Shown: positions 16,599-27,081 of the stretch, piece after piece
Layout: each line of letters begins with the position of its first letter
Position numbering within the stretch: position 1 is the first letter of the stretch
DNA from: Promethearchaeota archaeon
GTDB taxonomy: Archaea > Asgardarchaeota > Lokiarchaeia > Sigyniarchaeales > SOKP01
Direction of reading: 5' to 3'
NCBI GenBank assembly: GCA_030606485.1
Contig: JAUWGH010000003.1
Span: 210,001-242,000, forward strand
Length of the DNA: 32,000 nucleotides
Made by a program: the position numbers and the translations under genes
The notes under the pieces: model-generated
Told to the model about the DNA's origin: nothing
The model's database searches: none
The model's input: the letters and a program-made list of their open reading frames with translations, nothing else

Positions 16599-17615
16599 TT
16601 AATATCTTATTCTCGGATCGATTAGTCCATAAATTAGATCAGCACCTAAATTAACCATAACAAATGTTAGTGTTATGACAAACACAACTGCATTTAAGAC
16701 CCAGTAATCAGTATTTCGTATAGCAATCATTACTAGAGCACCAACTCCGTTTAAATTAAAAGTTGTTTCTGTAAGAATTGCTCCTCCTAATAAACCGCCA
16801 AAACTCATTCCAATAACCGTGACTACAGGAATCATAGCATTCTTTCGGGCATGTATATTTATTACATCTTCTTCTTTACATCCTTTTGCTCTTGCTGTTC
16901 TTACATAATCCTGTTCTAAGACTTCCAACATACTTGAACGAGTTTGTCTAACAACCGAAGCAAGACTAATAAAGGATAAACAGAATACCGGTAAAATTAG
17001 ATGGTATAAATAATCAATAATCAAATAGATTTGTCCGGATAATATTGAATCAATTACTCTGAAATTAGTAATAATAGGCGGATCTCCAATACCTGGACTT
17101 TTATAATTAAGACCTGGAAATAGTGGAATATAATAAGAGAATACCAATCGAAGGATCATTCCCATCCAAAATACGGGAATAGCAACACCAACAAGGGCCA
17201 TTCCCCTAAATATTGTGTCTTTAGGTTTATTTCTGTTAGTAGCCGAAATTATTCCAGTTTTAATACCAACTATTGCGGAAATAATAATTGCCATAATGGC
17301 AATATCAAAAGTCCTTGTGAATCTATCTAGAACAAGATCCCAAACTGGTTGACCTTTATTAATAGAAACAGAAACACCCCATTGACCTGTAAATAAATCG
17401 CCCAAATATATAAAATATTGTTCTATTATTGGTTTATCTAGGCCAAGTCGATGCAATTGAAAATTATATTGTTCTGTTGTAAATCGATCACCTAGAAAGG
17501 CTAAAACTGGGTCTCCTGGCATAAATCTAGAAAGTACAAAAGTCAAAGTCAAAACTCCAAATAATACAGGTAATAAAGCAATAAACCTTCTAACTATATA
17601 TTTAATCAAACTCAT
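16599..17615 (-). CDS. Peptide ABC transporter permease (DppB/OppB-like)
   Basis: PGDPV, LGLDKP, DYVRTARAKG, HARKNA, ETTF and DLIYGLIDPRIRY motifs. Confidence 0.93.
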   Translation of the reverse strand: MSLIKYIVRRFIALLPVLFGVLTLTFVLSRFMPGDPVLAFLGDRFTTEQYNFQLHRLGLDKPIIEQYFIYLGDLFTGQWGVSVSINKGQPVWDLVLDRFTRTFDIAIMAIIISAIVGIKTGIISATNRNKPKDTIFRGMALVGVAIPVFWMGMILRLVFSYYIPLFPGLNYKSPGIGDPPIITNFRVIDSILSGQIYLIIDYLYHLILPVFCLSFISLASVVRQTRSSMLEVLEQDYVRTARAKGCKEEDVINIHARKNAMIPVVTVIGMSFGGLLGGAILTETTFNLNGVGALVMIAIRNTDYWVLNAVVFVITLTFVMVNLGADLIYGLIDPRIRY

Positions 17616-17652
17616 AAGACTTAAAATCCCCTTCTTATTCTGTTATTATTTT

Positions 17653-18114
17653 TTAAACATCTTCAATTTTTTTTAATTTTTCAATATATCTTTTATATTT
17701 CTCTTTTAAGATAGCAGCGCTAATAGCACTTACAAAGTTAATTCCAAGAAGTGATATAATTGTTAAATATCCTTCTATACACGTAAAATAAACACCAATT
17801 AAGGCTATATTAAATCCGTTAAGTAACCAATACCAAAACCACGATAATAGGATTATAATTGGAACGAGCCATATACTATTTCTAATTCCATATTCAAAGA
17901 AATTTTCTTTAATTACCATTAAAAATATAATTGCAATGAGAATTACTAATGATAGAATAGTGGATGGATTAAATAAAATCTGATATAAAAATACTAGTTC
18001 TTCCTCAATAGTTCTTAGATAAATATTACATATAAATCCGAAAAAAACAAAATGAATTAATAGAATAGCTAAGATAAAATTACCTTGCCTACTTAGATCA
18101 ATTTTAATTTTCAT
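17653..18114 (-). CDS. Hypothetical membrane protein (about 4 TM helices)
   Basis: 153-aa hydrophobic ORF overlapping the upstream ORF by 4 nt (coupled). Confidence 0.65.
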   Translation of the reverse strand: MKIKIDLSRQGNFILAILLIHFVFFGFICNIYLRTIEEELVFLYQILFNPSTILSLVILIAIIFLMVIKENFFEYGIRNSIWLVPIIILLSWFWYWLLNGFNIALIGVYFTCIEGYLTIISLLGINFVSAISAAILKEKYKRYIEKLKKIEDV

Positions 18115-18968
18115 AATAAGTGCTCTAAATCAATAATTTCCAATTTAAATTTTGTTAAATCACATTCGGGGTTGAATTTTTCAATATTAGATCGTTTATA
18201 TATTATTCCATTATCACTCCATATTTTCAAATTGATTTTGTTCTCAAAACCTTCATGTAATAATTTCTTATTATAAGAAAAAACATCAAGAATATCATCA
18301 TAAATTAAATACGGGACAAAATGCATTTTCTTTATTTTATTCTTTAAATTTTTCACTTTAACAGAAACAATTTCTGGATAATATTGATCCTTTTTTTCTT
18401 TATAAAATTGTACAATTCTTTTGATATTTTTATTTTCAATTTCAAATTTATTTTGTTCAATTCTTTCCTTAAAGTAAATAAATACATTTTCACAATATTT
18501 TATAAGCTCTGAATGATATTCTTCATTTTTTGAGTCTATTCCTTGATTTTCACAATAAGCATAAAACTTTAAGAATTCTGAAAATAAAAATGTGAAATCA
18601 TCTGTGAGGCTTGGAATATTTGTTTTTAATTCAAGGGATTTTTCAAACCAACGGGTTATTGTTTCTGGTTTTAAAGTTAAGAATGTCTTTTCTTTAAATT
18701 TATTTTTTGCAAAATTTATTAAATTTTTAATTCCAGCTAATAAAAAAGATTTCATATTCAAAACAAGATCCAACTCGTTAATTAGCCGATTCAATTTAAT
18801 CATATCAGGTAATATGAAAAATGTTGATTCACCTTTGAATAATCTATCAATTCTCATTGGAATTGGCATTACGGGAATCCTAAAAATTTCCGAAGTAAAT
18901 ATATCAAAATAGAAGCCCACTGGCGCGAGATCACTCTTATATGTTTTCATTAATTTATTTGAGCTCAT
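18111..18968 (-). CDS. Hypothetical soluble protein
   Basis: 285-aa open frame, co-oriented within the ABC cluster; no family recognised. Confidence 0.65.
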   Translation of the reverse strand: MSSNKLMKTYKSDLAPVGFYFDIFTSEIFRIPVMPIPMRIDRLFKGESTFFILPDMIKLNRLINELDLVLNMKSFLLAGIKNLINFAKNKFKEKTFLTLKPETITRWFEKSLELKTNIPSLTDDFTFLFSEFLKFYAYCENQGIDSKNEEYHSELIKYCENVFIYFKERIEQNKFEIENKNIKRIVQFYKEKKDQYYPEIVSVKVKNLKNKIKKMHFVPYLIYDDILDVFSYNKKLLHEGFENKINLKIWSDNGIIYKRSNIEKFNPECDLTKFKLEIIDLEHLL

Positions 18969-19081
18969 TTTAAGTGTAATAGAAATTTAATAATAGAAGC
19001 ATAATAAAAAAATAATAAAAAAAAGAAAATTTAATTAATTTTTATACATATAGTCAGTTTTATTTATCACATAGGATTGTA

Positions 19082-20719
19082 TTATACGAAATAGATGGTA
19101 TCAAACACATCTTTCATTGCGTTTTGCATGTATCCTCTTAGGTTGGCAACACCGCACCATGGAGCATCGGAGACATAACCATAAGCCCATGGATATATTA
19201 CTTCAGCACAGCGTTGTTGTATATTGTCGTATAATACTTTTCTTGCAGCTGGATCGATTTCAGTTACGGCGGCTTCCATCCATGTTTGTAACTGTGCATC
19301 ATCAATTTTAGCCATATTAGAAGCAATTGCTGTATTTGTCATCAACATATTGATGAAATTGCTTGGATCGTTATAATCAGGAATCCAACCAAGCCACCAT
19401 AGTTCCAACATATTTCTATGAAGGTCACCTACTTCATATCCTCGTTTAATATACTCTCCCCAAGTCATACCAGTATCTGTGATTGCGACTCCAATTTTTG
19501 CAAAATTATCTTGGCATACAATCAACATATCTTCTCGCATTTCATTCCCGATATTATAAGTATAGTTATATGTTGCAAGTGGAGTACTACTTGCAGCTAT
19601 AGCCTCCCAAGCAGCGCCATCAGTTACAGTTAATCCCGCGGTTCCTGGCCAATTTGCATCTAAAAGAGCCTGTCTTGCTATTGTGAGATCGAGAACAGGG
19701 TAATCAAAAGCATCGTTATGATATAATATACCTTTTGGAATGGGTGATGTCATTCTCATGGCATAACCTTGCATGAGTTCATCGATAAGATAGTCATAAT
19801 CAAGAGCGTAACAAAGTGCTTTTCTCATTTCTACCGGAATTAACTCGTTATTTATTCCAAGATATTGAATTGACAAGGATGGTGCTGCATCAACTACTTG
19901 AATATTCGGGTCTGCTTCAAATGTTGGGATCATTGAAAGCATAGCAGAATCAATCAAGGAAATCTCCCCTGTTAATAATGCGGCGTTCTTCGCATCTGCA
20001 TCAGTAATTATTGCGAAAATCATATCATCAACTGCTGGCTTACCATCCCAGTAATTTGGATTTGGAGTGAATGATACCTCAACTTCAGCTTCAGTTCCGT
20101 CATAGATATATGGTCCAGTTCCAACTAGATCTCCAGTTGCTGTATCAATAAGAGCAGTCTTATTAGTTGCTGCAGGTGACATGAAATATGCGCTCCAAGA
20201 AGCTAATAATCCTAAGAGTGGAGCGTATGGTTCATTTAACACGAGCTTTACTGTGTAAGTATCAACTACTACAGTTTCTTTAATAATCCATTCGTGAGAT
20301 GGGAGAACCCATAGTTCTGCTATTTGGATTTCGTCAATCAAGCCATATAATCTGTCAAAATTCCATTTCACTACTGTAGCATCAAAGTCAGTTCCATCAT
20401 GGAATTTAACTCCTTGTCTTAGTACAAATGTAATTTCTTTACTATCAGTGCTCCATGAGTAGGATGTTGCTAAGTTAGGTATAATGGCTAAATCTGGATC
20501 AGCTACATCAACGTCTAATAAACCCTCAACAACAGCATGAATTACATCAATTGAAGCACTATCCCATGCTTGATGTGGATCAAGGTCCACAGGACCATAC
20601 ATCACTCCAAAGACGAATTTACCACCTTTTGGCATATTCATATACACAACCACGCCAGAAACACCTGCTATTGCAATAATAGCAACTATTCCTATTGTTA
20701 TGTATTGTTTTTTTTCCAT
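19082..20719 (-). CDS. Peptide ABC transporter substrate-binding protein (family 5, DppA/OppA-like) with N-terminal membrane anchor
   Basis: N-terminal TM helix, DLDPH, LRQGVKFHDGTDFDA, GTGPY and W..GWIPDYNDP motifs. RBS GTGA upstream. Confidence 0.93.
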   Translation of the reverse strand: MEKKQYITIGIVAIIAIAGVSGVVVYMNMPKGGKFVFGVMYGPVDLDPHQAWDSASIDVIHAVVEGLLDVDVADPDLAIIPNLATSYSWSTDSKEITFVLRQGVKFHDGTDFDATVVKWNFDRLYGLIDEIQIAELWVLPSHEWIIKETVVVDTYTVKLVLNEPYAPLLGLLASWSAYFMSPAATNKTALIDTATGDLVGTGPYIYDGTEAEVEVSFTPNPNYWDGKPAVDDMIFAIITDADAKNAALLTGEISLIDSAMLSMIPTFEADPNIQVVDAAPSLSIQYLGINNELIPVEMRKALCYALDYDYLIDELMQGYAMRMTSPIPKGILYHNDAFDYPVLDLTIARQALLDANWPGTAGLTVTDGAAWEAIAASSTPLATYNYTYNIGNEMREDMLIVCQDNFAKIGVAITDTGMTWGEYIKRGYEVGDLHRNMLELWWLGWIPDYNDPSNFINMLMTNTAIASNMAKIDDAQLQTWMEAAVTEIDPAARKVLYDNIQQRCAEVIYPWAYGYVSDAPWCGVANLRGYMQNAMKDVFDTIYFV

Positions 20720-21096
20720 ATTTAAATCACTTAAATATTTTTGTTTTATTTTAATAATTTTTTAAATACTTTTTATTAAATTGTTGTTACACAATTTTTA
20801 GATATTGTAATTTATAAGTTTTATCTTTTTTTTTTCCTATCTTCCAATGGAGATATATTAAATGAATTATGTTTAAATCGTTAAAAAGTATCGGCTTTGG
20901 CACTTTTTTCTTATTTTGGGCAAATATTCCCATAACTTTATCACTAGTTTTTATTATAAAAGATTTAATATTACTAAGAATTGGAAGATTATTAAAACTA
21001 AGTGAAATAAAAGAGTTCGTTAATTTTCGCTATGCCGCTTAAAATCTATTAATAAAAACCTTAAAATTTTAAAAGATATGGTTTAATGAGTTGAGT

Positions 21097-22854
21097 TTAT
21101 TGTTCATAGTAGAAGTTTTTAATTTCTTGAGTTGTTGTTATTTGAGAAGGAGATTTATCATCTCTGAAGCGCAAGAAAACAGGAAATCGTATTGAAAAAC
21201 CAGTTTTAGATTCAGAAGATTTTCCAGCGTCAAATTTTTCACTTATAGTAATCTCATCACCAATAATTTCTATTACTACTTTAGGTTCAAACCAGATATC
21301 TGGCTCTTCCTTAGCGATAACATTAATTGGTTTTTTCCCAATCTCGTACTCCTTCATTTTCTCTAAGATATCGTCCATAATTTCATCAGTAAATCCTGAA
21401 GCAATTCTTGTTAATGCCTCAAATTTATTATTTTCAGGATTATATATCGCACCTAATAATGTGCCATATACTCCTTTTCTTCTACCACGACCCCAATACC
21501 CTCCAATAAGGACGACATCAACTGAGTCCTTCATTTTTCCTCTTTCTAGACTTTTTAATTTAATCCACAAAAAGCCTCTATTTCCTGGTTGATAAAAAGA
21601 ATCTTCTTTAATGGATTTATTTATAATACCCTCACATCCAATTTCTCGCGATTCATTGAAAAATTCTACCATTTCGTCAGTGTTATTAATCTCTTTAGAA
21701 ACAACTATCTGAAGTTCATCCCGTTTAATAATAATTTCTTCTAACTTCTTTTTCCGTTTAAGAAATGAATGATTAATATATTCTTCTCCTTCACACATTA
21801 AAAGATCAAACAAAAAAACCGTTACAGGAATTTCTTTTGCCATTTTATCAATATCATATTTTCTTCTTCGTTTACTTAATACTTGAAAGGGGAGCATCTT
21901 TTCATAGAAAGGATCCATTGCAATCACTTCACCTTCAAATATAGCTACGTTTGCTTTAATATTCGATTTAATAATTTCACACACATCAGGATATCTATCG
22001 GTTATTTCGAGTAATTGTCTAGAAAATAATTTAATCTCATTATTTTTTTTATGGATTTGAAGGCGTTCTCCATCTAATTTCTGTTCTGCAATAAATTTAG
22101 GACCTAATTTATCCATAATTTCAGAATAATCTAATCTACTAGCGAGCATCATGCGTATTGGAACTCCATAAATAATTTTTAATTTTTTTAATGCATCAAG
22201 ACCTTGAGTAATTAATATTTGAGCGATTTCACCTAAATCAGGATGAATGTTGAATGCACGTTCAATTTCTTCTCTATTATTTTTATTATCGGTTAATCCT
22301 TCAGCTAATGCATCAATAATGGTCATGGTAGACACACCCATCCTTAATGTAGAAGTTATTATTCTAAGCAAAAACTTAGCCTCTAAAGGAGAGCATTTTC
22401 CAAGAATACCTCTTAAAGATCTTAATTTTATATCTTGAGACCCTTTACCTGAAGCTTGCGATATCTTCAATAGCTCTGAATATATCTCTGAAATAGTTAA
22501 TGATTTTGTATCTCTAAATAGGGTTTGTTGTTGCTTTTTTTTCTTTAATATAATCTCAGCAGCTGAACCAATATCACCTTTTTTTAATAAAATCTCCTTG
22601 ATTCTCTTAGGACCCAATCCAGAATGAGTAGATAATGCCTCAATGATCATTTTTTCAGCAAGTCCAATCTTAGGGAATTGTTTTATGTTCGAAGTTAATT
22701 GACCTTGAGAGAGGTATATTACTTTATCAAAATCTATATACTTATTATTTTTCTTTAAATCTCGAAAAAAAGTAGAAAGAATATCTATCTTTTCAAGTCT
22801 TTTGGAAGTCTCCTCAAGGGATGCAAAAATTTTTGTTAAATCCTTAAATTCCAT
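21097..22854 (-). CDS. lig: ATP-dependent DNA ligase (archaeal type)
   Basis: N-terminal DNA-binding domain, motif I EQKLDGER, FEGEVIA, FLFDLL, EGIINK, WIKLK and SIRFPVFLRFRDDK. Confidence 0.96.
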   Translation of the reverse strand: MEFKDLTKIFASLEETSKRLEKIDILSTFFRDLKKNNKYIDFDKVIYLSQGQLTSNIKQFPKIGLAEKMIIEALSTHSGLGPKRIKEILLKKGDIGSAAEIILKKKKQQQTLFRDTKSLTISEIYSELLKISQASGKGSQDIKLRSLRGILGKCSPLEAKFLLRIITSTLRMGVSTMTIIDALAEGLTDNKNNREEIERAFNIHPDLGEIAQILITQGLDALKKLKIIYGVPIRMMLASRLDYSEIMDKLGPKFIAEQKLDGERLQIHKKNNEIKLFSRQLLEITDRYPDVCEIIKSNIKANVAIFEGEVIAMDPFYEKMLPFQVLSKRRRKYDIDKMAKEIPVTVFLFDLLMCEGEEYINHSFLKRKKKLEEIIIKRDELQIVVSKEINNTDEMVEFFNESREIGCEGIINKSIKEDSFYQPGNRGFLWIKLKSLERGKMKDSVDVVLIGGYWGRGRRKGVYGTLLGAIYNPENNKFEALTRIASGFTDEIMDDILEKMKEYEIGKKPINVIAKEEPDIWFEPKVVIEIIGDEITISEKFDAGKSSESKTGFSIRFPVFLRFRDDKSPSQITTTQEIKNFYYEQ

Positions 22855-22904
22855 CTTAAGAAGCCTTTTTTTAAAAAAAATAAGAAGAAATTAATTCTTT
22901 TATA

Positions 22905-23771
22905 TCATTTTAACATTTTTGAAAGTTCTACAAATCTTTCTTGGATAGCGGTCTTTTTTTGAGCGTCTATTCCCTTGAAAGAGTTTATTGAAAATTTAAT
23001 ACCTGTGCCTTCAATTTGAAATTCACACACCGGCCCATCCATAATCTCGACTGCTATACTTCCATCATCCTTTTTACTTGCCCAAACATCATTAAACTCT
23101 TCTAAAATTGAAACTAGGACAAATCCAATTCTTGCATCAGAGATAGTTGGGATTTCTTTTAAGGGTGTTGGCTCTTTTTCAACTGTTTTTGGAGGTTCTT
23201 CAATAGGAATTTTTGGTTCTGGTATTACAGTTTTAGGTATCTCCTTTTTAAGTTCATATTCTGTTGCGGGAGAAATAATTTTCTCTTCTGTCTTTACAGG
23301 TTTTAATTCAGGCTCTGAAATTTCCACTTTTTTCGGTTTTTCTTTAAGTATAGGGACAGAAGGAACTGCTGGTGTGGGCTTAGGGATTTCTTCAGGAGGT
23401 TTTTCTTTGCCAACGAGAGTAAAGGAAATAATATTATCTCCTATCTCTTGGTATTCACGATCTAACAATTTTTGAAATTCTTCATTTACTGCATCTGTTT
23501 CGGGATCCCTACCTATTTTTCTTTCATCAATTTCAATTAATTGTTTAATATCTCTACCCAGAATAGATTTTCCAATTTGATAACCATGTCCCTTAAGCGC
23601 TTCTGCTTGCCTTAAAGCTACTCTACGGGAGACTAAATTTTGTCTTTTTCCATGCCATAGCCATAATTTAAGATTCCCTTCGTCTAAAACAATAATTGAG
23701 CTATCAGATATAAGATTTTCTTTACCCCACTTAATTGGAGTAGAAACTCCACCTTCTTCAACGTTAAACAT
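22905..23771 (-). CDS. Gelsolin-like domain protein with Pro/Glu/Lys-rich linker and an unknown C-terminal domain
   Basis: SIIVLDEGNLKLWLWHGK...RRVALRQA resembles the gelsolin repeat core (hydrophobic strand-D...W.W.G...A..A). Confidence 0.65.
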   Translation of the reverse strand: MFNVEEGGVSTPIKWGKENLISDSSIIVLDEGNLKLWLWHGKRQNLVSRRVALRQAEALKGHGYQIGKSILGRDIKQLIEIDERKIGRDPETDAVNEEFQKLLDREYQEIGDNIISFTLVGKEKPPEEIPKPTPAVPSVPILKEKPKKVEISEPELKPVKTEEKIISPATEYELKKEIPKTVIPEPKIPIEEPPKTVEKEPTPLKEIPTISDARIGFVLVSILEEFNDVWASKKDDGSIAVEIMDGPVCEFQIEGTGIKFSINSFKGIDAQKKTAIQERFVELSKMLK

Positions 23772-23983
23772 TAATAAATATGCTCGTGATTCAGATATTT
23801 TAAAACACCTGTTATTATTAATTTTTGATATTTATGTTTTTATGATTATTTTTTAGATTTACTATTATAATTAATATTAATTTTATTATAGTTAATTATT
23901 TTTTTAAAAACATTTAAAGATTAAAATTACCAATATTGAAATAATTATTATTGAGCGAAAACTAAAAAATTGTTGCATCATAA

Positions 23984-25072
23984 ATGGATTTAGAAAATTT
24001 ACTTAGAGAAGATTTTGACAAGATAGAACAATATATACCAGAAGAACAACCATCTGAAGCAGGATGGATTAAGTTAAACATAAATGAGAATCCATATCCC
24101 CCTCCACGGGTAATTTTAGATGAAATTAAAATGGCGATTAATGATAAGTTAAGATTATATCCCGAGCCAACTGGAAAAGATTTAAGGAAAATGATTAGTT
24201 CAGTTCTTTTAGTAGATAAAAAGACGCTAACTAATCCAAATAACATTTTTATAGATAACGGAGCCGATGGAGTTTTGGAAAATATTATGAAAGCTTTCAT
24301 CAATCCAGGAGATGAGGTAATTTATTTTTATCCAACATATGGATTATATAAAACATTGAGTACGATTTATAAAGCTAAAAAAAATGAAATAAAATTAAAT
24401 GATGATTTCTCAATTCCCGAAAGTGCATATTCACTAAAAGGTAAATTAATATTTATTAATTCACCAAATAATCCAAATGGAAAAGCATTCTCAAATGATG
24501 TAATTTTAAAAATTTGTAAGAATTTTCCAGGAATTGTTATTGTCGATGAGACTTATGGAGATTTCAGTCAAACTACCTCTTTACCTTTATTAAAGGAATT
24601 TAAGAATCTAATGATTGTTAGAACATTTTCTAGCTCATTTTCACTTGCTTCATTGAGAATTGGATACGCTGTTGCAAATGATAAAATCATTAAAGCAATG
24701 AATAAAGTAAGATTACCTTATAATGTTAACTATCTTGCGCAGATTGCCGCTATTTCTTGTATAAAACATCGAGATTTAGTCTTTAAGCAAAACCAGAAGG
24801 TAATTTCAGAAAGGAAAAGATTAGCAGAAGTATTATCTAAATACAATGGAATAAGTGTGGAACCTTCAGATACAAATTTTATATTCGTAAAATTCTCAGA
24901 TAAAAGTATTTGTTTAAAATTTATATGGGATTTAAAAGAAAAAAAAGTATTAGTACGACATATAAGTAGACCCGGATTATATCAATATATGAGAATTACA
25001 ATAGATACACCAGAGAATAATAATAAATTTTTAGAGATATTTAATGAACTTTCAAAAAAATATTTACAATAG
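23984..25072 (+). CDS. HisC-like (class II / fold type I aminotransferase) protein lacking the PLP Schiff-base lysine
   Basis: IKLNINENPY, YPTYGLY, SPNNPNG, VDETY and LRIGY motifs are present, but the consensus RTFSK reads RTFSS. Confidence 0.85.
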   Translation: MDLENLLREDFDKIEQYIPEEQPSEAGWIKLNINENPYPPPRVILDEIKMAINDKLRLYPEPTGKDLRKMISSVLLVDKKTLTNPNNIFIDNGADGVLENIMKAFINPGDEVIYFYPTYGLYKTLSTIYKAKKNEIKLNDDFSIPESAYSLKGKLIFINSPNNPNGKAFSNDVILKICKNFPGIVIVDETYGDFSQTTSLPLLKEFKNLMIVRTFSSSFSLASLRIGYAVANDKIIKAMNKVRLPYNVNYLAQIAAISCIKHRDLVFKQNQKVISERKRLAEVLSKYNGISVEPSDTNFIFVKFSDKSICLKFIWDLKEKKVLVRHISRPGLYQYMRITIDTPENNNKFLEIFNELSKKYLQ

Positions 25073-25109
25073 TAATTAAAAAAAAATAATAGAAAAGAGC
25101 CATTAACTC

Positions 25110-26279
25110 ATGCTTTTTGGAAGAGAATTAGAAAAAATTCAATGTAAAAGTTGTGGTTATGTAATAACTAAACCATTTCCATTGGATCAATTATGCCCAA
25201 ATTGTAAAAAATTTCTTCCAAATTTATTTGAGGTTTTAGCAAAAGCGGAAGATGAGAAAAAACTAATAAAAGGGATTCCAAAAGAAATTCAAAAAGTAAC
25301 TAAAACTCCAGCATCTGAACTTTCTAGTAAAGTAAAAGTGAAAAAAAAAGCGGTTAGGACAATAGAATTATCTAATGATGAAATTGAAGTTAAAACAGGA
25401 GAAGAGTATATTAAATTATTAGGTATTATCACCCAAAATCGGATACCTATATTTTGCAGCAATGTAAGATATAATTATTTACTTGAACTTGCTTGTAATC
25501 TTGATTTTATAGCAAGTAGTATTTTGGGTGGGGAATTAGACCAAATGATGTTAGAATCAATAGAAACTCAAAAAATGGAGAATTGTATTTTTGTAATAGA
25601 TAAAAGCATAATTTATATACTATATGGAAAATTTCCGAATAAAAAAGGGTACTGGCTAATAGAACAAATGAAAAAAAACCTTGATGCCGCCCTAGAGGGC
25701 TTAGATCCAGATCAGTTAGAAAAAATTCAAGCCCATAACATTTCCCTGAAATTGGAATCTGCATTAAAATATTGCATACTGGAATATATTAAACTTCAGG
25801 AAGTATTTAGTGATAAAAAAATCCCATTTGTCGAGGACACACTGAGAGTTCATTATTTTGGATTATCATCTCAATCAATTGGAATTATATCATTATTATT
25901 AGGTGAAGAATTACCAATTGTATATAAAGGTCCAACTTCTTCCCCTCAAGAAGAATTAGAAATAAAAGAGTCATTAGTAACTGCTACGGTAGAAGCGATG
26001 GCAGCAAATACAGCTGGAAATACCGGTGCTATGCCTAGATGGATTGCAGTAAAATTAGGTTTTCAAAATTATCGTTTCTTAACCTTTACACAATTAGAAA
26101 AAGATTATATTATTAATATGTTGAGTGAAGGTAATATTGAAAAACTGGAAAAAGTGGAAAAATTATTACAAAATGTTGTACAAGATGCAGTACAAACCAA
26201 ATTCCACGGTGATTTAAGACCGTTTAATAAATTAAAAACTGATTTAAAAATCTTTTTTGAAAAAAAAGTATTTTCTTAG
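25110..26279 (+). CDS. Hypothetical protein: N-terminal Zn ribbon plus two putative longin-like domains
   Basis: CKSC-x13-CPNC, then two segments with a beta-beta-alpha-beta-beta-beta-alpha-alpha pattern. The fold call is by eye. Confidence 0.6.
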   Translation: MLFGRELEKIQCKSCGYVITKPFPLDQLCPNCKKFLPNLFEVLAKAEDEKKLIKGIPKEIQKVTKTPASELSSKVKVKKKAVRTIELSNDEIEVKTGEEYIKLLGIITQNRIPIFCSNVRYNYLLELACNLDFIASSILGGELDQMMLESIETQKMENCIFVIDKSIIYILYGKFPNKKGYWLIEQMKKNLDAALEGLDPDQLEKIQAHNISLKLESALKYCILEYIKLQEVFSDKKIPFVEDTLRVHYFGLSSQSIGIISLLLGEELPIVYKGPTSSPQEELEIKESLVTATVEAMAANTAGNTGAMPRWIAVKLGFQNYRFLTFTQLEKDYIINMLSEGNIEKLEKVEKLLQNVVQDAVQTKFHGDLRPFNKLKTDLKIFFEKKVFS

Positions 26280-26388
26280 CAGCTTTAATAATAACTATTA
26301 AAAAAAGAAAAGATCATTATTCTTTATCAAAAACATATCCACCAACAACACATTTAAATATTTTGATGCAAAAAGAGATTAAATTCTT

Positions 26389-27081
26389 TTAATTTTTCTT
26401 TCTTCCTTTCAATTTTAATGAATAGAATGTATTTATAAAAATTATAGAATATACCAGAATTACCAGTAATAGATACCACCATTGTGTGAAGATCGCCGTA
26501 ACCCATTCTTGATGGGCAATTGGAAATATAATTAAACTCTCAATAATTAAAACCAAAATTAACCATAAAGGCGCTGTTGAAATGCTGATTAGGAAGCCGA
26601 GAAATCCTAAAACGATCCCAAAAATTACATCAATGAAATAATGGGAACCAAGATAGATCCTACTAAAACATACTAAAAAAGAAATAATAACTAAAAATGG
26701 AATAAGTATCCATAAATTTAATAAAAATATAATTGCACAAGACATCGAAATTATATTGTAACAATGCCATGAAGGAAAACTTGGGGAAATTTGTGGTCTA
26801 TCCAAAAAAATAATTCCATCAATTTGTTGAAAAGGGCGCTTTCTCTTAATGATATATTTTAAAGGCACAACTAAATAGATTCCTGCTAATAAATTTCCTC
26901 CAAGAACGATGAAAATATTTGGATCATACCATATAAATAGAAAAAATGCCAAAATACCTAACCATATAGGTTCCTGACCAAAAAATGCAAAAAATTTAAT
27001 GATAGGAGTTAAATAATTATTCTTAAAACTATTAAGTCTTAAGGTTATTTCTTTATCAAATAGAATAATCTTCTCGAACAT
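26389..27081 (-). CDS. PAP2-family membrane phosphatase (lipid phosphate/undecaprenyl-PP phosphatase-like)
   Basis: Motif 1 KYIIKRKRP, motif 2 PSWH, motif 3 SRIYLGSHYFIDV, and multiple TM helices. Confidence 0.88.
   Translation of the reverse strand: MFEKIILFDKEITLRLNSFKNNYLTPIIKFFAFFGQEPIWLGILAFFLFIWYDPNIFIVLGGNLLAGIYLVVPLKYIIKRKRPFQQIDGIIFLDRPQISPSFPSWHCYNIISMSCAIIFLLNLWILIPFLVIISFLVCFSRIYLGSHYFIDVIFGIVLGFLGFLISISTAPLWLILVLIIESLIIFPIAHQEWVTAIFTQWWYLLLVILVYSIIFINTFYSLKLKGRKKN

Follow-up and report, generated by a model that had tools for sequence, protein, structure and literature searches.

The locus and its HisC-like gene

The window considered here is the whole analysed stretch of 32,000 nucleotides from the genome of a Promethearchaeota archaeon, an Asgard archaeon, and our subject is an intact gene in it that is related to hisC, the gene of histidinol-phosphate transaminase. 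Its neighbours in the window are a DNA ligase gene, a gene for a protein of 288 amino acids (aa), a longin-domain gene and PAP2. The HisC-like protein has serine in place of the lysine that in HisC enzymes forms a Schiff base with pyridoxal 5'-phosphate (PLP), and the gene has nevertheless been kept under purifying selection. Two features are central to the description:

23984..25072, forward strand: HisC-like gene, intact, 362 aa; evidently the native Asgard hisC ortholog, with a predicted HisC fold and without the Schiff-base lysine
24632..24634, forward strand: AGC codon of Ser217, at the position of the catalytic lysine as aligned to the structures 3hdo and 1h1c

The open reading frame (ORF) starts with ATG at 23984 and ends with the stop codon TAG at 25070-25072. 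Its product matches the TIGR01141 hisC profile with 314.1 bits (cut-off 276.55) over model positions 1-348 of 349, and the sole domain above the Pfam cut-off is Aminotran_1_2 (172 bits, residues 28-351 of 362). An AlphaFold model obtained with 52 orthologs as input has a predicted local distance difference test score (pLDDT) of 84 and a predicted template modelling score of 0.84. When Foldseek was run with this model, the top matches were all HisC structures, including 3hdo with a template modelling score (TM) of 0.84 and an expectation value (E) of 2e-33. An intact full-length frame with the HisC fold had been proposed in a first-pass annotation of this DNA, and the profile and structure searches agree with it.

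Below, G000 denotes the genome of the window and G001-G004 denote species-representative genomes of the same genus. In a maximum-likelihood (ML) tree, the gene falls inside the native hisC clade, where it nests (support 97-100) with the copies of P0003 and G004, both located directly 3' of hisD. To judge by these relationships, it is the vertically inherited native hisC of its Asgard lineage, the order of Prometheoarchaeum. Public records name this and the other lysine-less genes 'histidinol-phosphate transaminase'. An antisense ORF of 113 aa (23962-24303, reverse strand) overlaps the 5' part of the gene; nothing marks it as a real gene, although no search aimed at it was made.

Replacement of the Schiff-base lysine

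Codons at 24620-24634 read AGA ACA TTT TCT AGC, corresponding to R213, T214, F215, S216 and S217. In phmmer alignments, Ser217 faces the Schiff-base lysine of the RTLSK motif of 3hdo and of the RTFSK motif of the Thermotoga maritima enzyme (Lys202 of 1h1c), so the initial placement of the RTFSS stretch at the HisC lysine position was correct. The protein does not have the internal-aldimine lysine of the S-K motif that characterises the HisC family.

The 149 nearest representatives of 50%-identity clusters, drawn from all life, without exception have lysine at this position, as do 117 of 121 close Asgard orthologs. Within the 90%-identity cluster of the query, members with about 98% identity have Ser (Asn in one exception, P0125) and members with about 91% identity have Asn; none of the 14 full-length members, which come from several sources, has Lys. 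The codon at the site is AAA (Lys) in G004, AAC (Asn) in G001 and G002, and AGC (Ser) in G000 and G003, i.e., four species-level genomes of the genus (G000-G003) lack the lysine, two with Ser and two with Asn. All lysine-less sequences of the genus form one clade of the ML tree with support 99; its sister is the Lys-bearing P0003, the nearest Lys-bearing relative with 86% identity, followed by G004 and P0005. The lysine was lost in the common ancestor of the four species, and the change proceeded by single-base steps from Lys through Asn to Ser (AAA to AAC to AGC).

A sequencing or assembly artefact, or a mutation private to one bin, is of practically negligible probability. It had been argued in the first-pass annotation that an error was unlikely because two base changes separate a lysine codon from AGC, and the data strengthen this argument. 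Four independent metagenome studies, of cold seeps, marine sediments and the subsurface, yielded contigs that agree with the window at positions 24632-24634, which excludes a sequencing or assembly error; G003 and seven other members of the cluster have the same AGC, and sister species with 91% identity carry the intermediate Asn allele (AAC).

Retention of lysine by all close orthologs had been named as an observation that would contradict a dead or repurposed protein. This was found in part: orthologs with 86% identity or less keep Lys, those with 90% or more lack it. The loss is therefore young, at the level of the genus, yet it is no fresh inactivation.

Genomic context and the histidine pathway

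The surroundings of the gene and a second his locus in the genus are described by the following features:

22905..23771, reverse strand: 288-aa gene, divergent, of unknown family; left edge of the site occupied by hisG-hisD-hisC in relatives
23772..23983, no strand: divergent intergenic region 5' of the HisC-like gene; site of hisG-hisD in relatives
L039 = G001:C36:47023-53617: type-2 his operon locus, compact, including a hisA-hisIE fusion

Native hisC stands directly 3' of hisD, typically in the order hisG-hisD-hisC, in 16 copies (15 related genomes and the contig of P0003). In G017, for example, the order is DNA ligase (-), 288-aa gene (-), hisG, hisD, hisC and the 389-aa longin-domain gene (+). 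In the lysine-less species, hisG-hisD is missing and hisC abuts the 288-aa gene. The latter, which has no Pfam match, adjoins hisC only in genomes without adjacent hisD, and it adjoins the longin gene where hisC is wholly gone (G011 and G015).

Promoters are inferred to lie in the intergenic region. Its alignment between G000 and G001, of about 203 bases, shows 8 mismatches plus a single indel of 13 bp, while synonymous divergence (dS) of the flanking genes is 0.26. Conservation better than that of synonymous sites suggests that expression signals have been preserved there.

Genome G000 is 100% complete by marker genes. A search of this complete genome gave no match to hisD, IGPD (hisB) or hisG, and only weak matches to hisF, below the cut-off. 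Neither a histidine pathway nor a his-gene neighbourhood, which would be expected for a member of the HisC family, was found in G000. G001 and G002 have a separate complete his operon on another contig, consisting of hisC2, hisB, hisH, hisF, the hisA-hisIE fusion, hisG and hisD; its hisC2 is Lys-bearing with the canonical TFSKAFGLAGLR motif. G000 has no such operon: at G000:C1:433977-434037, a gap of 60 bp separates its flanking genes. A hisG or hisC2 similar to this operon type was also found in G011, G024 and G035. The cluster looks mobile or replaced as far as sequence comparison can tell. The ancestor of the lysine-less clade may have had a G001/G002-type operon, with redundancy followed by loss, or may already have been auxotrophic.

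Several other observations concern these loci. G024 has a type-2 hisG-hisD-hisC cluster plus a native hisC without adjacent hisD (L026 = G024:C53:6019-7107), and in this native copy the Schiff-base lysine is kept, although the substrate site shows Lys instead of Arg325, which is conserved otherwise. Between the 288-aa gene and hisC, the genus of G014 has a gene of 320 aa without family match (L050:4920-5879, L053:876-1838 and L061:190-1149), at the place that hisG-hisD takes in other genera. In front of the lysine-less copies of P0021 and P0011, the 320-aa gene was considered as a possible decayed hisG; this was rejected, as it has no family match and no counterpart in the G017 locus. Finally, in the comparison of G000 with G001 (window 16599-27081 with L041), dS is about 0.23-0.32 in the block that extends from DNA ligase to PAP2 (21097-27081) and about 0.74-0.90 in the four genes left of it (16599-20719). 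This step left of DNA ligase may be a recombination boundary, and the block with the lysine-less allele may have moved between lineages.

Selection after the loss of lysine

The ratio of non-synonymous to synonymous substitution rates (dN/dS, or omega) between G000 and G001 is 0.18 for the HisC-like gene, in comparison with 0.16 for DNA ligase, 0.14 for the 288-aa gene, 0.18 for the 389-aa gene and 0.13 for PAP2. Pairwise values within the lysine-less clade range from 0.15 to 0.24. The divergence between the Ser and Asn groups is all younger than the loss of Lys, and therefore its dN/dS reflects selection after the loss. When codon changes were mapped by parsimony on a six-taxon tree, the lysine-less subtree received 60 synonymous and 47 non-synonymous ones (omega about 0.20), and a binomial test on these counts rejected omega=1 (p=2e-16), omega=0.5 (p=1e-6) and omega=0.35 (p=0.002). 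There were no stop gains in the clade versus about 15 expected under neutrality (P=2e-7), the expectation being that a stop results from 5.1% of random substitutions in this ORF, which is AT-rich.

These estimates show purifying selection that, since the loss, has been as strong on this gene as on its neighbours. The check for purifying selection on orthologs with the replacement, set in the first-pass annotation, gave omega of about 0.2, the residue being Ser in two of the species and Asn in the other two.

Recurrent loss in the ortholog group

According to the tree, the lysine was lost at least four times independently in the ortholog group: in the clade described above (Asn/Ser), in G005 (Glu), in P0011 (Asn) and in P0021 (Gln). 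The Gln of P0021 was seen on 11 contigs. The losses in G005, known from a single genome, and in P0011, known from a single contig with 96% identity to a Lys-bearing sequence, could be errors. All four losses concern copies without adjacent hisD. Lys is lost in 7 of the 10 rows without adjacent hisD and in none of the 16 hisD-linked ones, which corresponds to 3-4 independent contrasts and is not significant. Since the replacing residues differ (N/S, E, N and Q), a release of constraint at the site is indicated, not the acquisition of a new catalytic residue.

The pocket, clade-specific changes and the question of residual catalysis

Fourteen residues were considered as cofactor- or substrate-site residues: Y17, Y59, G93, D95, Y119, N162, N163, D188, Y191, T214, S216, R225, R325 and R337. 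Their roles are assigned by homology and from the Escherichia coli and T. maritima HisC structures. All of them are present in the window protein and unchanged in every lysine-less lineage, including G005, P0011 and P0021. On the lysine-less subtree they underwent 0 changes versus 8.4 expected if neutral (P(0)=2e-4).

Where at least 90% of orthologs agree in a column, the lysine-less clade specifically has K217N/S, D232N, D61E and V211I. S94A is also specific to the clade, in a less conserved column where Ala is found in 7 Lys-bearing orthologs as well. At position 341, the Lys-bearing P0003 already has Ser in place of Gly, and the lysine-less clade has D, N or E. Most departures from the family consensus are common to the Lys-bearing congeners P0003 and P0004, and they are for this reason older than the loss. 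Two motifs that the first-pass annotation had taken as degenerate do not support such a view: SLASLR is the normal consensus of Lys-bearing Asgard orthologs, and in GADG the Gly96 is shared with Lys-bearing, hisD-linked congeners, only S94A being specific to the clade.

No compensating Lys or His gained near the site was seen in the alignment of the lysine-less clade. The sole clade-specific Lys gains are K80 and K234, so that the suggestion of another lysine filling the site found no support. K234 was rejected as a candidate because T. maritima HisC has a non-catalytic lysine at the corresponding position.

A more distant relative is encoded elsewhere in the genome:

G000:C10:744465-745424 (L002:1501-2460), reverse strand: HisC-like paralog L002, 320-325 aa

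With TIGR01141 the paralog reaches 214 bits, short of the cut-off. Its Schiff-base lysine is preserved (RTLSK), and Gly stands in place of the Arg that binds the PLP phosphate (GLAGSGIGY). It is conserved in G001-G003, is about 29% identical to hisC2 and is a distant paralog, unlinked to the HisC-like locus. The search for a second, Lys-bearing hisC, which had also been proposed, therefore had a mixed outcome: G000 is without hisC2 but has L002.

A pocket conserved in this way could mean that the protein is still an enzyme. It might act alone, with non-covalently bound PLP or pyridoxamine 5'-phosphate (PMP) and another base that carries out a different chemistry, or it might pair with a Lys-bearing paralog and be the inactive subunit of the heterodimer, as known from LCB1/LCB2 and Ser4/Ser5. 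Selection has kept the whole cofactor and substrate pocket except the lysine, which is in line with this. Active sites of fold-type-I enzymes are built from both subunits, and Lys-bearing candidates for a partner exist, namely hisC2 in G001 and G002 and L002 in G000. Lysine-less partners needed for activity have been documented (PMC11726168; PMC3794620). However, none of the residues that replaced Lys in the independent losses (S, N, E and Q) is a plausible general base, and no Lys or His was gained in compensation. G000 and G003 are without hisC2, and L002 has only about 29% identity to hisC2 and itself lacks the phosphate-binding Arg; moreover, G000 has no substrates of the his pathway. Retained catalysis seems rather doubtful to us.

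The downstream longin-domain gene and the possibility of a relic

The HisC-like gene is followed by a gene of another kind:

25110..26279, forward strand: 389-aa gene, beginning 37 bp after the hisC stop codon; Zn ribbon and tandem longin domains predicted for its product

This gene is directly 3' of native hisC in all 20 relatives with checkable loci. The protein has no Pfam match. Its structural model (pLDDT 81.5) contains a CxxC...CxxC Zn ribbon, a Lys-rich linker and two longin-type domains, and its best Foldseek matches are Fuzzy/Inturned, BLOC-3 (HPS1/HPS4) and Mon1-Ccz1, i.e., subunits of eukaryotic tri-longin guanine-nucleotide exchange factors of Rab (E 2e-5, TM only about 0.22). Of the 41 genomes of the order, 38 have the longin gene, which thus belongs to the core of the order and occurs also in some genomes without native hisC. 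An obligatory functional pair of hisC and the longin gene was considered and is weakened by the persistence of the latter without native hisC in G011 and G015; the pairing may therefore be historical and not functional, and a link in function between the two genes is not supported.

In 11 of the 20 relatives, the longin orthologs (within L016-L032) have no ATG, GTG or TTG between the upstream in-frame stop and the invariant CxxC of the Zn ribbon. They share a conserved start of the 'I-S-x-L-F' type with ATT or ATA. From this, either non-canonical initiation or a coupling with hisC, which lies upstream, may be suspected. The longin gene of the window, as in this clade generally, has its own ATG start.

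Such an arrangement raises the possibility that the HisC-like gene is a young relic without function. After the deletion of hisG-hisD and the loss of the transaminase role, the ORF would survive only as the first cistron before a core gene, and nonsense, frameshift and misfolding mutations would be selected against even though the protein does nothing. The position of the core longin gene 37 bp behind hisC and its missing canonical start in 11 of 20 relatives, which fits translational coupling, are in line with this. So are the restriction of the loss to one sub-clade of the genus, with a Lys-bearing relative as near as 86% identity, the changes at the conserved positions G341 and D232, and the complete loss of hisC in G011 and G015, where the 288-aa and longin genes are about 290 bp apart. 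On the other hand, the gene has the same omega, about 0.2, as DNA ligase and other neighbours, and the tests place it significantly under both 0.5 and 0.35; polar effects alone would not restrain missense changes. A useless empty pocket would be freed first, yet it shows 0 changes versus 8.4 expected, and the longin gene of this clade has its own ATG. A relic is in our judgement unlikely.

A probable lysine-independent role

In our opinion, it is somewhat probable that the gene encodes a catalytically dead HisC ortholog that selection has kept for a property of the intact fold and pocket independent of the lysine, probably ligand binding. The native hisC has been deprived of its Schiff-base lysine and of its context in the histidine pathway, and it would persist as a folded, selected pseudo-aminotransferase. 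Without the lysine, neither the internal aldimine nor the 1,3-proton shift would be formed or carried out, and the protein would not work as a transaminase. The property under selection would most likely be non-covalent binding of PLP or PMP, or of a phosphorylated or aromatic amine ligand, and the bound ligand might be used for sensing, buffering or scaffolding. Two marks of a pseudoenzyme are present, namely the loss of an indispensable catalytic residue and purifying selection afterwards. The suggestion of a dead or repurposed protein made in the first-pass annotation thus appears sound as far as computation reaches, considering the shared loss, the selection, the kept pocket and the absence of a compensating lysine.

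Several facts weigh against such a role. The lysine-less clade is young, with dS of about 0.26-0.34 across it, so that the retention observed covers a short span. At the gene-average omega of 0.2, only 1.7 pocket changes would be expected (P(0)=0.18), and constraint on the pocket stronger than the average of the gene is unsupported. The substitutions at the formerly invariant G341 and D232 hint at some relaxation. G011 and G015 deleted hisC completely, and the gene is accordingly dispensable in some backgrounds. In G014 and G023, other copies without adjacent hisD have retained Lys over a divergence of about 1.5 in dS, at omega 0.07. Hence, hisD-less copies appear to be usually catalytic, and a lysine-independent role requires a special postulate for the clade under consideration. 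HisC is known to be promiscuous, and these Lys-bearing hisD-less copies presumably are general or aromatic aminotransferases.

A far-reaching extension may be mentioned, although we regard it as highly improbable. Native HisC of the Asgard family might also have a ligand-sensing or scaffolding role that needs the pocket and not the lysine, the sole role kept in pathway-less lineages, and it might signal the supply of amino acids or vitamin B6 to the co-transcribed protein with the Zn ribbon and tandem longin domains. If true, this would be a prokaryotic forerunner of the signalling from metabolite sensors to longin proteins in eukaryotic nutrient sensing.

Significance and comparison with known systems

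Dead homologs of PLP enzymes kept by selection are already known (LCB1, Ser4 and antizyme inhibitor). Literature searches found no report of a HisC ortholog with a dead site kept by selection, and nothing specific on lysine-less HisC or on a link between aminotransferases and longin proteins in Asgard archaea. In the present case, the whole path can be read in living relatives, from the hisG-hisD-hisC cluster through a stranded Lys-bearing hisC to the loss of Lys in one-base steps under continued purifying selection. This is a natural experiment on the transition from enzyme to pseudoenzyme in the archaeal group closest to eukaryotes. There is a practical consequence for annotation as well: the lysine-less genes would wrongly count toward the histidine pathway in metabolic reconstructions of Asgard archaea.

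Among proteins of the PLP fold that became sensors or regulators, the aminotransferase-like domains of MocR, PdxR and GabR, as well as antizyme inhibitor, which is a dead ornithine decarboxylase, use the fold of a PLP enzyme for binding instead of turnover, as is proposed for the window protein. The MocR type differs in keeping the lysine and in having a fused winged helix-turn-helix domain. The HisC-like protein is a bare aminotransferase domain of 362 aa in which Pfam shows no fused DNA-binding domain. The PMP-dependent sugar dehydratases ColD and E1 are likewise natural fold-type-I proteins without the Schiff-base lysine, but they are catalytic, belong to the DegT/DnrJ/EryC1 subfamily and use His as the base instead of Lys, whereas the replacements in the ortholog group described here are Ser, Asn, Glu and Gln.

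Lysine-less partner subunits of fold type I include LCB1/SPTLC1 of serine palmitoyltransferase (PMC3794620) and Ser4 of the Ser4/Ser5 aminotransferase (PMC11726168). They resemble the window protein in being conserved and in lacking the PLP lysine. Unlike it, they work only together with a Lys-bearing subunit that is adjacent or co-conserved, and no such partner is evident here, because hisC2 occurs only in G001 and G002, on another contig, and G000 has only the distant, unlinked L002.

The closest comparison is with HisC itself (EC 2.6.1.9; TIGR01141; T. maritima 1H1C and Geobacter metallireducens 3HDO). The window protein is evidently an ortholog by descent, collinear over its full length and with the same predicted fold. 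It keeps the Asp, Asn, Tyr, Ser/Thr and Arg residues of the PLP pocket and both Arg residues that bind the substrate phosphate, and the ortholog of its relatives stands in a hisG-hisD-hisC cluster. It differs in having Ser (Asn in sister species) instead of the Schiff-base lysine, in the absence of a his pathway from G000 and in its position away from hisD. Summarizing this comparison, the protein is best read as a pseudoenzyme of the PLP fold, a HisC by descent that lacks both the lysine and the pathway context on which the function of its family rests.

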